Shown piece after piece: positions 1,422 through 5,438 of a DNA stretch of 7,092 bases. The stretch's first letter is position 1, and every line of letters begins with the position of its first letter. Position numbers and translations under genes: made by a program. Below the pieces are notes generated by a model. The model worked only from the letters and a program-made list of their open reading frames with translations, had not been told where the DNA came from and searched no databases. Source of the DNA: a virus (lineage: Duplodnaviria; Heunggongvirae; Uroviricota; Caudoviricetes); IMG/VR virus record IMGVR_UViG_2529292836_000020; one strand, given 5' to 3'.

Positions 1422-2738
1422 TTAAAAATCAGCCTGATTCGGGATCAGTTTTTGCCAGATAACTGAAACGTATTTTGCCTGGTAACGGGCGTCATCAAGT
1501 GCATTATGGCGCTCACCTTCGAATGGAATAGCCGTTCTGGCATCGAAGTCTATGGCTTTCCCCAGCTCAACGATTGTGCGTACATCGCGATCGTTGTAGT
1601 AACGCCACGGGCAGGGGATCCCCTGCCGTTCGTATGAACGGCGCAAAATCGTGTTGTCGAAGTTGGCTCCATTTCCCCAGACCTGAACAAAAAATTCACC
1701 GGAGTTTTCGTCGATAAATTCCCGCAATTGTAACAGTGCATCATCTAACGGGATTTCATCGGTCATAATGGCAGACTGCGCTTCACGTGATTGCTTCAGC
1801 CACCTTTTAATGACGTCACGATCAATGACTCCGCCAGCAGTTTCCAGATCGATAGTCTTACTAAATTCCGGTCCCATATCTCCGGTTTGCGGATCGAAAA
1901 ATATTGCACCTATTGAGATAATCGGAGCATCAGGATTTTTTCCCATGGTTTCAAGGTCGATCATTAGATGGTCACACGTCCTACTGGCGGATGTGATTTC
2001 GTGATGACTGTTCACCTTAATTGAGTGATCTGCCGTCTCGCCAGTTTCATTATCGCTATTGTGATGCTGATCGCTACCAGCATTCTCCTTGTGTGGATGT
2101 TCAGCGCCTTCCATTTCCTTCGGATCATTTTCCTGAACTTCAACCTGATACTCTTCATCGAATGTTTCCTGGTATGTTGCGTCGCCCATCACCGCGCCAC
2201 AATCAGGGCAGTTGCCGCCGCCGGTCTGACCGCAGGCGGTGCAGATCTTTTCCGGTTCCTGTTGCACTACTGGTTCAGGTTGTTTCGTTTCTGGCTCGTT
2301 TTGTAACGCATTTGGGCTGTTTTGTTCCGCTTTCTGGTCGTTCTGTTCCGATTCTTGCTGGTTCTGGTTCACAGAATCGCGGGTTTCAATCCCCTTCACC
2401 CATTTCGGATCATTCGGGTCGCTAATCCCTGCAACAAATTCTCCGCGAGAGGCAGCAAGCAACTTATCGGCGTCAGGCTGGCTGATATTGGCTGCCTGCA
2501 TAATTTTGTTTACTTCGTCAGCGGTAACTTTTACCGGCTCTGGTTGTGCGGTCGTGTCAGATGCACCAGTATTTTGTTGTGAACCTGAGTATGTACCGTT
2601 TTTGCGGGCGAAATATTCTTCTTTCGTGATTTCAGTAGCCCCGGCAGCCAGCGCCTTATTCCAGACCAGAAAGTTTGTTTGCGCGACCGTATTTTTCGCC
2701 ATCCTTGTCGGTGAAGAGGAAGTAGAACGGCCCTTCAC
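1422..2738 (-). CDS. Intact C-terminal ORF of the exonuclease VIII-like gene (438 aa from GTG at 2738; contains the DEDDh 3'-5' exonuclease domain)
   Basis: Longest uninterrupted ORF in the window. Listed separately because an annotation pipeline may call it as a stand-alone exonuclease. First in-frame ATG at 2702 has no spaced SD. Confidence 0.55.
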
Positions 2739-3389
2739 GCTCTACAGATGGTTCGACTTCCACTTTGCATTCGGTTTTTTCGTTGTCCGGAATTGCCGTT
2801 TCCACTGCATCAGTTTCTGGTACTGGCGACGAGAGAGTATCAGTTGCGCTCTGATTTCTTCCTTCATCTTCAAACACGCCCTTTGTAGTCAGGTATTCAG
2901 TAATGTATTTGTTCAGTGCCACAGGGTCTTTGTGAATGTCGATCGGACGTTCACGGACAAGGCCAAAAATAGTCTGGCGGTCGTAGCGAAGGGCATCAGG
3001 CTGTTTGCGCATTGATGCCGAGATACGCTTCCAGTCTTCGCGTCGTTGTCGATAACTTCATTTTTTGCCCAGCGATGGATGCTGCCGTCAATGTTTCCGG
3101 CATCCACATCACCAGGCCAGAGAGCGTAGGCCAGTTCGTCATCCAGTGTTTTCCATGTCTGCTTGTATTCGCGATGAGTGGCAGCAATGACCGGGCTGAT
3201 TTTTCCTGTTGAATTTCAGTGTTCTGTTGATTGGCTCTGGCGCGGGCGAGATCAACAACAGACGTGTATTTTCCGGTTTCCTTGCGTTCACCTTCGCGAC
3301 GTTTTTTCCAGATGCGCATCTCTGCCTGAATTTCGGGCCATTTGGCACCAGGCTTACATTTATGCTTAACCCACCCGATGGCATGCAGC

Positions 3390-3887
3390 TTAAGTCCGGA
3401 TACATGGCGTTAACTTCTGCATTTTCATCAACGCTTCAACGATATGTCCGTCGAATGTTGCCATGTCTTCCTGCAACATTCCTGGCCTAATCACCATATC
3501 AACGGTGATGTTTTCACATGTGTCGAACTTAACCATGACAGCGTTCTGTACTTCAGGGGCCAGCTTGTCAAAAGTGACGTTCATCGGATCTGATTCAGTC
3601 TCAACCGGGACAAAGGAAGCTGACTCCTCATCCCAGCGGTTTTCCTGCATATATTCAGCATCCCAGGAATCGAGGGCAGGGCGGGGTATACCGGGTTTAT
3701 CCTCGCAAACAAGAAATTTATAAGCGCAGTCCTGAGCAGCCGGATAATGTTCCAGGAATTGCCAGTGAAATTTTGCGCGGGCGCGACGTTCATCACCGGC
3801 TTCAATGGCAGTGGCTACAGCGACTGCACCTTCTTCCTTTATTGCCTGTTCGTCCGGAATAGCGGCGCAAATAAAGACTTTACTCAT
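3390..3887 (-). CDS. N-terminal fragment ORF of the exonuclease VIII-like gene (165 aa)
   Basis: ATG at 3887 with GAGGT 9 nt upstream; ends at an in-frame TAA at 3392..3390 created by the first frameshift. Translation matches my recollection of the N-terminus of K-12 YdfE (unverified). Confidence 0.55.
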   Translation of the reverse strand: MSKVFICAAIPDEQAIKEEGAVAVATAIEAGDERRARAKFHWQFLEHYPAAQDCAYKFLVCEDKPGIPRPALDSWDAEYMQENRWDEESASFVPVETESDPMNVTFDKLAPEVQNAVMVKFDTCENITVDMVIRPGMLQEDMATFDGHIVEALMKMQKLTPCIRT

Positions 3888-3967: not shown

Positions 3968-4171
3968 TTACGGTGCTGTTTTAAGTCCTGCCGGGATTTC
4001 GTTATTATCCATGTGAATAACTTTATCGACCGGATAACAGTTACCGGGAATTTTCTGTTCTGCTGCGGCAGCCATGCATTCTTTCATTGAACCGTAAATG
4101 TCAATAACCATGTCAACAGGCTCGCCAGTATTAAGAAAAACAGTCAGAGTGAGGGCAATAGCAGTATTCAT
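3968..4171 (-). CDS. ydfD: YdfD-like small protein (67 aa; Qin prophage lysis protein family)
   Basis: ATG at 4171..4169 overlaps the dicB stop as ATGA, with AAGGA 8 nt upstream. Hydrophobic N-terminus MNTAIALTLTVFLNTG. Position immediately downstream of dicB matches the Qin operon order. The ORF track's longer start at 4225 would overlap dicB by 58 nt and is rejected. Confidence 0.8.
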   Translation of the reverse strand: MNTAIALTLTVFLNTGEPVDMVIDIYGSMKECMAAAAEQKIPGNCYPVDKVIHMDNNEIPAGLKTAP

Positions 4172-4356
4172 TGCCAGTATCCTTTTTGCATCGGGCGTAA
4201 ACGGGCCAGCATTGAAAGAATGCATATTTTATTTAATAGCTCCCGTTCGTATTTTCTCTTATTAATGGCATCTTCAGTAAATACAGGGTTACTGATTCTG
4301 ACACCAATTTCAAAACAACCTTCAGACGTATTGACGTTTGGTAATAACGTTTCCAT
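4168..4356 (-). CDS. dicB: Cell division inhibitor DicB (62 aa)
   Basis: ATG at 4356 with GAGGA 7 nt upstream. Translation METLLPNVNTSEGCFEIGVRISNPVFTEDAINKRKYERELLNKICILSMLARLRPMQKGYWQ is near-identical in length and sequence to E. coli K-12 DicB as I recall it. The GTG start at 4452 in the ORF track lies inside the processing stem and is rejected. Confidence 0.88.
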   Translation of the reverse strand: METLLPNVNTSEGCFEIGVRISNPVFTEDAINKRKYERELLNKICILSMLARLRPMQKGYWQ

Positions 4357-4373
4357 TATCGCGTCCTCAACAA

Positions 4374-4530
4374 TGAATTTTGTGATGCGGTGCCTGGTGC
4401 CTCCAGGTGACGTTAACCAGTTAACAATTAACGCCGGATACAGAGAACCCACCCATAAGCCAATACGGAAGTCAACTGGTTTTAACTGTTCCGCGTGCGC
4501 TCAGCCGCATTCACCGCATCACAAAATTCA
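4374..4530 (-). promoter_or_regulatory. Perfect 19-bp long-range inverted repeat (4374-4392 and 4512-4530) forming a predicted RNA stem that encloses a 119-nt loop; candidate RNase III processing site
   Basis: Plus 4374-4392 tgaattttgtgatgcggtg is the exact reverse complement of plus 4512-4530 caccgcatcacaaaattca. On the minus-strand transcript the 5' arm begins 4 nt after the DicF U-tract and the 3' arm ends 17 nt before the dicB start codon. Confidence 0.5.
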
Positions 4531-4534
4531 CTTT

Positions 4535-4577
4535 AAAAAGGGCGGCAGAGCAGTCACGGAGTAAAACTGATACCGCC
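4535..4577 (-). terminator. Intrinsic terminator-like hairpin plus U-tract at the DicF 3' end
   Basis: Stem GGCGGUA ... UGCCGCC followed by C and UUUUU (plus 4535-4539 is aaaaa). Confidence 0.55.
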
Positions 4578-4592
4578 AAACGTCACCAGAAA
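4540..4592 (-). ncRNA. dicF: DicF small RNA (53 nt; ftsZ-targeting antisense sRNA of the dicB operon)
   Basis: Minus-strand sequence UUUCUGGUGACGUUUGGCGGUAUCAGUUUUACUCCGUGACUGCUCUGCCGCCC followed by UUUUU matches the DicF sequence as I recall it, in the expected position between ydfC and dicB. Confidence 0.88.
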
Positions 4593-4904
4593 ATTGATAA
4601 CAGAGGGCGTTGCAGCGGGGTTGTCACTTAAGCGTATGGTCAACCTGACAACCCGGTGTCCTCAACGGGGGAAGGAATAACCCCGCCATACTTACCGCCG
4701 CACCATTTCGCGGATTGCCACAACCGGAAGCGCACGGTCGACGAAAATTTAACGACAGGCTATCTATGAACCAGCTACCTCGCCGTGCGCTTTCGCGTTA
4801 TGGTCTGACTTTGCAGGGAAATATCCTTTCAGTAAACTGTCTGTGCCGGATGCTCACCCGTGGAGAACTCCTTACTTACCAACCTTAGCTTCGTTGGTTA
4901 GCTA

Positions 4905-5123
4905 TTAACGCGGGTATGTAATCATTCTGGCAATGCTTAATGCCGCTGCTTTTTCCAGATTAGTGATATCCTGCTCCAGAGCGGACAGATTTTCAGCCTG
5001 CTTAGCCCTGGCTTCATTGGCCCATTTCAGATCCTGCGCTGCATTAATTTTCTGGTACGTCCACTCATAAAGTTCATCATCGGTATAGTCTGGCGCGATG
5101 ATGACGGGTTCTCGTTTCTGCAT
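4905..5123 (-). CDS. ydfC: YdfC-like small protein (72 aa)
   Basis: ATG at 5123 with GAGGA 7 nt upstream; stop TAA at 4907..4905. Length and position (third gene of the operon, upstream of DicF) match Qin ydfC. Confidence 0.82.
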   Translation of the reverse strand: MQKREPVIIAPDYTDDELYEWTYQKINAAQDLKWANEARAKQAENLSALEQDITNLEKAAALSIARMITYPR

Positions 5124-5152
5124 ACTGATTCCTCGCGGTGCTGTTTCGCTTA

Positions 5153-5281
5153 TCAGCCGTTAGATTTTGCCGAACTGGAAAGCGCCTGTTTAAATTCGTT
5201 GAAGCTGAGAGCTTCTTCGCCTTCGGCAAGACCTTCGAAGTATTCTTCGTAAGCCTTTTCCATGATTGTGTCGAAATCCAT
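5153..5281 (-). CDS. ydfB: YdfB-like small acidic protein (42 aa)
   Basis: Not in the supplied ORF track (below its size cut-off). ATG at 5281..5279 with AGGTGA 5 nt upstream, one nucleotide after the ydfA stop; translation MDFDTIMEKAYEEYFEGLAEGEEALSFNEFKQALSSSAKSNG; stop TGA at 5155..5153. Fills the gap between ydfA and ydfC; length matches Qin YdfB. Confidence 0.72.
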   Translation of the reverse strand: MDFDTIMEKAYEEYFEGLAEGEEALSFNEFKQALSSSAKSNG

Positions 5282-5282
5282 A

Positions 5283-5438
5283 TCACTCACCTGAGTTTCT
5301 TTCCAGCCAGCGACGGGCACCATTTTCGGTTTTAAACGTTTTGCTTTTGGTATACGTCATCGCGGTGAACGTACCGTCCTGGTTGGGGAACACGCCACAT
5401 ACCAGAGATTCGCTGTTGCCAAGATCGATAGTATCCAT
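5283..5438 (-). CDS. ydfA: YdfA-like small protein (51 aa)
   Basis: ATG at 5438 preceded by GAGG 5 nt upstream; translation MDTIDLGNSESLVCGVFPNQDGTFTAMTYTKSKTFKTENGARRWLERNSGE. The upstream in-frame ATG at 5519 (78 aa) has a weak SD; the true start could be either. Confidence 0.75.
   Translation of the reverse strand: MDTIDLGNSESLVCGVFPNQDGTFTAMTYTKSKTFKTENGARRWLERNSGE

Follow-up and report, generated by a model that had tools for sequence, protein, structure and literature searches.

The 312 nt that separate ydfC from the small RNA DicF in a Qin-like prophage are best explained as the 5' two-thirds of a modular RNA-processing cassette, in which a domain of about 120 nt (module B) constitutes the conserved body of a phage RNA family; we give this reading as a whole a probability of about 0.6. 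The gap is non-coding and modular, and module B is conserved, covarying and invariably linked to a terminator. We are confident that the gap is a non-coding, structured precursor of DicF, and it is very likely that module B is a real conserved RNA domain. The leader itself was already known, as the "long untranslated region containing dicF" or the 3' UTR of ydfC. The fold of module B, its independent conservation and its spread appear to be new: we found no description of it in the literature on the dicF-like region, ydfC/dicF, STnc100 or the 190-nt species, the literature on put-like RNAs being covered in part.

A long untranslated gap in a Qin-like early operon

The window, i.e., the whole stretch of 7,092 nt analysed here (IMG/VR record IMGVR_UViG_2529292836_000020), carries on its minus strand the early-left (PL-type) operon of a Qin-like prophage. 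The gene order is DicA-type repressor, ydfA, ydfB, ydfC, DicF, dicB, ydfD, exonuclease, xis and int. The window is 89% identical to the Qin prophage of K-12 across the region, and 89-98% identical to K-12 and other E. coli prophages taken together. The equivalent gap in K-12 MG1655 has 340 nt and no RefSeq annotation. The features described below are collected in Table 1. As a side observation, the exonuclease VIII-like gene (1422..3887, minus strand) contains two frameshifts, near 3042 and 2658, and a tblastn search with the intact homologue of NZ_CP024257 recovers it in three pieces, in frames -2, -1 and -2; it is either a pseudogene or the product of sequencing errors.

A previous reading of this DNA from the sequence alone had noticed about 310 nt of apparently non-coding leader between ydfC and DicF, without a minus-strand ORF of credible size. 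Both statements hold, as the gap spans 4904..4593 and its longest minus-strand ORF encodes 31 aa from a GTG start (4735..4640). The accompanying remark that all other gaps of the operon measure 1-30 nt was too strong, because the interval between DicF and dicB (4539..4357, about 183 nt) is likewise untranslated and structured. The gap and DicF are on one strand, the gap adjoining the 5' side of DicF, and the ydfABC-dicF-dicB operon that contains them is a homologue of the one in K-12 Qin. It is not DicF itself: the 52-nt covariance model RF00039 matches only just outside it, which makes the gap a flank of DicF. No Rfam 15 family matched within 4593..4904 at its gathering score or at E<=10, the other sub-threshold matches lying outside the gap. 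Transfer RNAs and tRNA-like genes were sought with ARAGORN, which reported none in the window, and with Rfam, which gave none in the gap. In MFE folds the region has stability z-scores of -3.0 (391 nt) and -4.8 (514 nt).

The available text of Ragunathan 2023 (PMC10448788) confirms two DicF species first found by Faubladier 1990. A 190-nt form is lost without RNase III and accumulates upon inactivation of RNase E, and a 53-nt form needs RNase E (PMC10448788). The same work found no internal promoter in the dicBF operon, in agreement with our simple consensus scan, which detected no promoter-like site on the minus strand in 4100..5400. Together with the position of DicF, these published data bear out the proposal that the gap is the leader of the DicF precursor.

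Over 120 IMG/VR contigs and annotated phages, when compared with the window, revealed sharp homology breakpoints at window positions 4862, 4802 and 4724. These breakpoints indicate that the gap is built from successive RNA modules, namely a junction piece, module A, module B and a linker.

Table 1. Features in and around the ydfC–DicF gap (window coordinates, written 5' to 3' along the minus strand).
Feature	Position	Strand	Basis or remark
ydfC	5123..4905	-	72 aa; TAA stop at 4907..4905
Junction piece	4904..4863	-	Varies with the upstream gene
6-bp hairpin ACCAAC/GUUGGU, 9-nt loop	4898..4878	-	Read from the sequence; directly after the ydfC stop
AAGGAG motif	4873..4868	-	Within conserved junction GGUUGGUAAUUAAGGAGUUCUCC
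Module A	4862..4727	-	Defined by breakpoints; ends in a long hairpin
Module A, 5' part	4862..4804	-	Small hairpins of GCCGGA..UCCGGC type and CUGAC..GUCAG; alignment
Module A, long hairpin	4803..4718	-	About 21-bp stem; MFE folds and RNAalifold
Module B	4724..4604	-	Four-helix-junction RNA, about 120 nt; alignment and covariation
P0	4724..4718 with 4615..4609	-	Closing helix of module B
P1	4713..4709 with 4702..4698	-	Hairpin of module B
P3	4685..4681 with 4670..4666	-	Hairpin of module B
P4	4654..4646 with 4626..4618	-	Hairpin of module B
Possible pseudoknot	4691..4686 (GUAUGG) with 4639..4634 (CCAUAC)	-	Module B; 3' partner in the P4 loop
Linker hairpin	4602..4581	-	UGUUAUCA (4602..4595) with the DicF 5' seed UGGUGACG (4588..4581); MFE folds
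DicF small RNA	4591..4540 (4592..4540 per K-12 annotation)	-	Rfam RF00039, 76.7 bits, E 4e-16
Module C	4528..4360	-	Long hairpin, closing stem of about 21 bp; MFE fold; outside the gap
dicB	4356..4168	-	

Module B occurs with and without DicF

The distribution of module B suggests that it is an independent module, separable from DicF. BLAST searches of phage records matched window 4724..4601, unaccompanied by DicF, in phage cdtI, Stx2c phages, 2H10 and Salmonella phage F1055. In P1, P7 and the plasmid prophages related to them, the match covered window 4713..4616. At least 120 contigs with module B came from a pattern scan of IMG/VR. Diverged copies, for which a scan of one genome per species was also used (it gave chance matches in unrelated phyla too), occur in Escherichia albertii, E. 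ruysiae, Citrobacter, Trabulsiella, Erwinia, Izhakiella and Serratia symbiotica. From the lambdoid prophages of several genera to the P1-type plasmid prophages, identity ranges from 75 to 100%.

Module B is present in 4,415 of the 5,426 complete E. coli genomes (81%), at 9,436 places (480 on plasmids) and in up to 8 copies, and in 4,314 genomes a copy spans 80% or more of it. By comparison, DicF plus linker occurs at 7,244 places. Among the matches listed, none of the module B places in complete E. coli genomes carries an annotation. Of the 14 scanned loci with module B, a single one has an Rfam match to DicF after it (a fifteenth scanned locus, L008, is without module B). The covariance model of module B gives a single match in each of the P1, cdtI and 2H10 loci (6-10 kb around module B searched) and in the complete genome of phage Tritos, whose PR operon has none.

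The so-called dicF-like region of P1 (L003 3053..3154) is overlapped by the match of the module B model. It resembles the 3' half of module B, which lies upstream of DicF, followed by an unrelated terminator; it does not resemble DicF, which Rfam does not detect in the P1 locus.

We also asked whether module B mimics a host RNA. The nhmmer search gave two weak matches, both at the 5' end of pre-23S RNA (E 0.5 and 1.2), which we treated as chance. The weak similarity between window 4604..4726 and rrnB (L175 2329..2426), which involves CGGGUUGUGAGGUU and AAUCUGCGAUAAGCGUCGGUAAG, is not significant: the local score with pre-23S is 23 against 16±2 for shuffles, and another rrn window reaches 22.

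Fold and covariation of module B

The fold of module B was derived from an alignment of 74 distinct sequences, and a model-based realignment of 79 sequences gave the same picture. Standard pairs fill 94.6% of the paired cells (94-95% over both alignments), against 92.3% after shuffling and at most 57% in slid controls. The signal is clearer in the pairs that changed on both sides: there are 11 of them, against 4.5±1.5 in shuffled alignments (mean of 4.3-4.5 across both alignments; 0 of 500 shuffles reach 11) and at most 5 in slid controls. Compensatory changes affect 6 of the 9 pairs of P4, where GGGUUGUCA/UGACAACCC becomes GGGUAACCA/UGGUUACCC in Izhakiella and GUUGCCA/UGGCAAC in P1. The window scores 148.7 bits with the covariance model of module B (R1). 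Since P0, P3 and P4 contain G-U pairs, which would be A-C on the other strand, the structure lies on the strand of the operon.

An isolated module B sequence folds no better than its shuffles (z = -0.3), and it is thus the covariation, not the folding energy, that carries the case for the structure. The patterns used to gather the sequences fixed much of the junction and of the P4 loop, so that the invariance of these parts is partly imposed. P0, which competes with the base of the module A hairpin, shows only one-sided, wobble-compatible changes. The possible pseudoknot is weakly supported: one compensatory event (U-A to C-G) speaks for it, and among five true copies with variants of GUAUGG, found in three targeted scans, one is wobble-compatible, four are mismatched and none is compensated. 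The invariant unpaired bases of module B suggest that it probably binds a host factor.

The earlier suggestion that the gap may hide an additional small RNA is thus right in the sense of a covarying domain of about 120 nt that occurs with and without DicF, a sense that could not be seen from this sequence alone.

Processing of the DicF precursor

Module A precedes module B. Homology to the window starts at 4862 in 30 loci, which points to a mosaic breakpoint at this position, and at 4802 in 25 loci. The stem of its long hairpin, in which CCAUAAC-GC-GAAAGCGCACGGCGA... is paired with ...UCGACCGUGCGCUU-CC-GGUUGUGG, has 21 pairs according to RNAalifold on 32 distinct relatives, with solely one-sided, wobble-compatible changes. 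Its 3' strand includes the 5' strand of P0. A 190-nt RNA sharing the 3' end of DicF would begin at about U4729, some 137 nt upstream of DicF and inside this 21-pair stem. From this coincidence we infer that the module A hairpin is the RNase III substrate that makes the 5' end of the 190-nt species; the cut would be placed by the published size, and the dependence on RNase III comes from K-12 data (PMC10448788). The sequence-only reading had suggested that the leader may carry the RNase E sites that define the 5' end of DicF. An RNase E cut fits at the very 3' edge of the gap, whereas the 5' end of the long form is attributed to RNase III and not to RNase E.

In the linker hairpin, the loop AUUUUC contains the predicted RNase E site 4593|4592 (CAAU|UUUC), which fits the preference RN|WUU. 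Other versions have the variant linker/seed pair AUCAC/GUGAU. The 3' end of DicF results from termination at the terminator that follows module B (PMC9438474). Beyond DicF, module C has a stem formed by AGUGAAUUUUGUGAUGCGGUG and CACCGCAUCACAAAAUUCAUU and lies directly upstream of the ribosome-binding site of dicB. It has a partial match to STnc100 (4528..4379, 38.5 bits), below the gathering score of 47. As modelled, module C is likely the RNase III site behind the published 72-nt DicF 3' end. A homologue of module C precedes kil in PhiR5_2 and in an Actinobacillus phage, and terB/tciA in P7 and P1.

These elements can be assembled into a model. A transcript from the DicA-repressed promoter would run through ydfABC into the cassette, where the module A hairpin would fold first. 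A cut by RNase III near U4729 would leave a 5'-monophosphate end and produce the 190-nt "long DicF". This cut would also release GUUGUGG, allowing P0, the outer helix of module B, to close and complete a four-helix junction, possibly with the P4 loop docked onto the junction via the pseudoknot. The linker would then hold the 5' seed of DicF paired until RNase E cuts in the AU-rich loop at 4593|4592, yielding the 53-nt DicF that ends at the terminator. The family as a whole would consist of module B, a variable spacer or loop, and an intrinsic terminator, in RNAs of about 175-245 nt expressed from repressor-controlled early promoters. DicF would be the member that has a seed region between module B and the terminator.

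Terminators, apparent absence of N, and what module B may do

In each of the 86 distinct sequences downstream of module B there is a hairpin followed by a U-tract; random pieces have one in 29% of cases. The terminator stems are of at least six unrelated sequences, and neither stems nor spacers are related between types. The spacer between module B and the terminator is variable (12 to >100 nt), and the cdtI-type versions have nearly none, which means that module B cannot in general serve as a short-sRNA precursor. We tentatively propose that it is a structured 5' pro-domain, which would stabilise the long form and govern its maturation.

Some of these loci have additional features around module B. 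In Salmonella F1055 (L005 2620..2720), the hairpin of the terminator contains AGGAG, an AUG or GUG, and then UUCU(A/G)CCG in the loop and 3' arm. The same type of hairpin follows module B in Serratia, Trabulsiella, Erwinia and Izhakiella (L147, L163, L166, L170), and a small ORF could start inside this terminator. Rfam matches to isrK and C4 antisense RNA lie 300-400 nt downstream of module B in two loci (L095 1171..1359, L063 4732..4920), and in cdtI they are on the opposite strand, beyond cro (L004 40..228). Also in cdtI (L004 2485..2772), a perfect hairpin of about 18 bp follows the terminator, and the 5' flank of module B, GUGCUCUCAGCGUUGUGG, with a boxA-like UGCUCUY, repeats the 3' strand of this hairpin in degenerate form. 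The resulting layout, X'-B-terminator-X-loop-X', allows alternative pairings. A flank-to-flank duplex around the unit of module B and terminator was significant in 5 of 10 cases among cI-type phages, but their 3' flank also forms a perfect local hairpin, and we do not claim this duplex.

The position of module B in phage operons raises the question of termination control, in which it would be a cis-acting RNA altering RNA polymerase at terminators, either as an RNA-only antiterminator like put or as a local tuner of the terminator. The genes beyond the sRNA terminator (dicB, exonuclease, xis and int, or ban in P1) would then be expressed without an N protein. Module B always lies in the sense direction of an early operon under repressor control; an intrinsic terminator follows it, and there are long operons beyond. 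In the leader of the ban operon of P1 and P7, the match of the model begins about 30 nt past the annotated -10 of the C1-controlled P1ban promoter (in P1). In cdtI it begins about 290 nt past the -10 of a strong PL-like promoter, a distance comparable to that of putR (PMC9378689).

In addition, phages with module B seem to lack N, as judged from two N types and from annotation. A PHROG scan of their PL-proximal ORFs gave no N-like protein, the N of PhiR5_2 hitting phrog_271 as a positive control. Searches with tblastn gave no homologue of the two N types in any B-carrying locus examined (149 instances of module B, 122 with at least 2 kb upstream), and N is absent from the annotation of the full Tritos genome and of the 5-10 kb around module B in cdtI and 2H10. 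PhiR5_2, which encodes N and has modules A and C, is without module B and without the sRNA terminator. Termination control accounts equally well for this N-less context and for the operons beyond the terminator. HK022 putL and module B have the words GCGCGGCGG and ACCAUGCG in common.

However, these words come in a different order and could be due to chance. The covariance model of module B gave no match in the HK022 regions, including putL, and its nhmmer profile none in putL. The architecture is unlike put, with a four-helix junction of about 120 nt against two stems in about 70 nt. Each phage has a single copy, and the PR operon of Tritos is without one. A processive antiterminator does not need an adjacent terminator, yet module B always has one. 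The 3' end of DicF arises at precisely this terminator (PMC9438474), which implies that read-through is incomplete. Finally, N families beyond the two tested may be present in these phages. We therefore regard termination control, the main rival reading, as an unlikely role for module B. Similarly doubtful is the broader proposal that module B defines a new phage RNA class whose target is a host machine, be it RNase E/Hfq, RNA polymerase at terminators or a further RNA-binding factor, with DicF as its passenger. Such a host-machine RNA would be common to N-less lambdoid prophages and P1, and its most striking version would be an RNA-only termination control in early operons with a fold unrelated to put.

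The other three alternatives are less likely than termination control or are contradicted. Module B could be a riboswitch-like sensor, whose ligand or factor decides between termination, giving the sRNA only, and read-through, giving the sRNA and the downstream genes. The layout is indeed the classic one of aptamer and expression platform: a terminator of variable sequence comes after a conserved junction of several helices, in which many unpaired bases are invariant. Yet inspection of six terminator types revealed no alternative pairing with module B: the stems differ wholly while module B is constant, and the spacer length varies widely. Besides, no Rfam riboswitch matches, and the flanking hairpins of RNase III type point to an excised RNA rather than to a leader switch. 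We consider a riboswitch quite improbable.

Junction piece and small open reading frames

The 6-bp hairpin ACCAAC/GUUGGU after the ydfC stop is present as described earlier, to within 1 nt (ACCAAC at 4898..4893, GUUGGU at 4883..4878). It is part of the ydfC-specific junction piece. Relatives with other upstream genes have a different small hairpin (CCCUC..GAGGG) at this position, and no compensatory change was seen; taken alone, the hairpin is a weak feature. The AAGGAG motif was also correctly described as having no properly spaced ATG, but a GTG at 4857, with a spacing of 10 nt, had been missed.

This GTG opens a 19-codon ORF (4857..4798), and together with the 31-codon ORF in module B it provides the support for a hidden small protein gene or micro-ORF. 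Neither survives the comparison. Most relatives have ACTGACAG, with a TGA after 5 codons, where the window has ACAGACAG. In several K-12-type relatives the start itself is GUA, GUC or GUU, which excludes AAGGAG as the ribosome-binding site of a conserved ORF. In the longer K-12-type version, a hairpin CUCCAC/GUGGAG around the position of the GUG is kept despite these changes. The 31-codon ORF lies inside the structured module B, whose length varies from 121 to 127 nt among the 74 distinct sequences, with differences of 1-6 nt that include non-multiples of three. Stops occur in all three frames in 67 of these 74 versions, and variability is equal across the three codon phases (0.101, 0.101 and 0.094). 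The check proposed earlier, covariation against codon-like conservation, therefore comes out on the side of covariation for module B and shows no codon periodicity, and the idea of a micro-ORF can be set aside.

Compared with K-12 and most relatives, the window is without 28-29 nt (CACGGGTGAGGTGGAGTGCGTGCGCCGGA) near 4862, owing to a deletion between two direct repeats CACGGGTGAG. This deletion takes out the small hairpin CUCCAC/GUGGAG. The mosaic structure of the gap, its sharp breakpoints and this deletion might suggest that phage modules are here separated by a neutral spacer, or by a scar of recombination, that has no function of its own. This view, and with it the "no conservation at all" of the sequence-only reading, is contradicted by the identity of module B between lambdoid and P1-type prophages, its compensatory changes and its presence, to at least 80% of its length, in most complete E. 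coli genomes.

Significance

DicF belongs to the bacterial small RNAs that have been known longest, and so far its long precursor was regarded as no more than a leader. If module B is functional, one of the commonest unannotated RNA elements of E. coli, found in 81% of the complete genomes, would gain a role, and the dicF-like region of the P1 ban operon would be explained. It would also provide testable handles on two questions: how N-less temperate phages pass an sRNA terminator that lies within the early operon, and by what means a toxic prophage sRNA is kept in an inactive long form. If module B is merely stabilising, the analysis still gives a cleaner map of the untranslated region of dicBF, with hairpins A and C for RNase III, a linker that masks the seed, and a loop for RNase E.

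Comparison with known systems

The closest system is the DicF precursor of K-12 Qin dicBF, which is the same RNA at the same locus: the last 137 nt or so of the gap correspond to the 5' part of the 190-nt species. The available text on this precursor (PMC10448788) gives the sizes and the nuclease dependence of its products; the fold of module B, its conservation independent of DicF and its presence in P1 and in phages that lack DicF are not described there.

The put RNAs of HK022 and module B are alike in being structured sense RNAs upstream of terminators, in the repressor-controlled early operons of N-less temperate phages. They differ in that put (PMC9378689) has about 70 nt, two stems and one copy per early operon, whereas module B has about 120 nt, four helices and one copy. 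A place of module B in the put family was rejected after locating putL with the primer given in PMC9378689, as neither the covariance model nor the nhmmer profile matched it. A nut site (boxA and boxB with N) was likewise rejected: the boxA-like UGCUCUY is confined to the 5' flank of versions of the cI type, where the window has GUGCGCUU, and N was not found. STnc100/PasD (RF02076; Zhu, Shabalina and Storz, bioRxiv 2026) is a prophage RNA resembling module C, to which its sub-threshold match is confined; Rfam finds no member of this family in 4593..4904.

The long, near-perfect stems A and C, of about 21 bp each, bracket the released unit in the manner of the RNase III stalks of pre-rRNA, the lambda N leader and T7 early RNA. 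Unlike these stalks, which pair flank to flank, each of the dicBF stalks is a local hairpin; a flank-to-flank duplex is possible in the cI-type phages, where it competes with the perfect local hairpin. Finally, DicF resembles CpxQ, SroC and SdhX (PMC9438474), terminator-ended sRNAs that are also cut from a longer mRNA at an AU-rich site beside a structure. The upstream part of these three is ordinary mRNA, whereas DicF is preceded by a conserved, mobile, structured domain and a hairpin of RNase III type, and this domain is better conserved than the seed.
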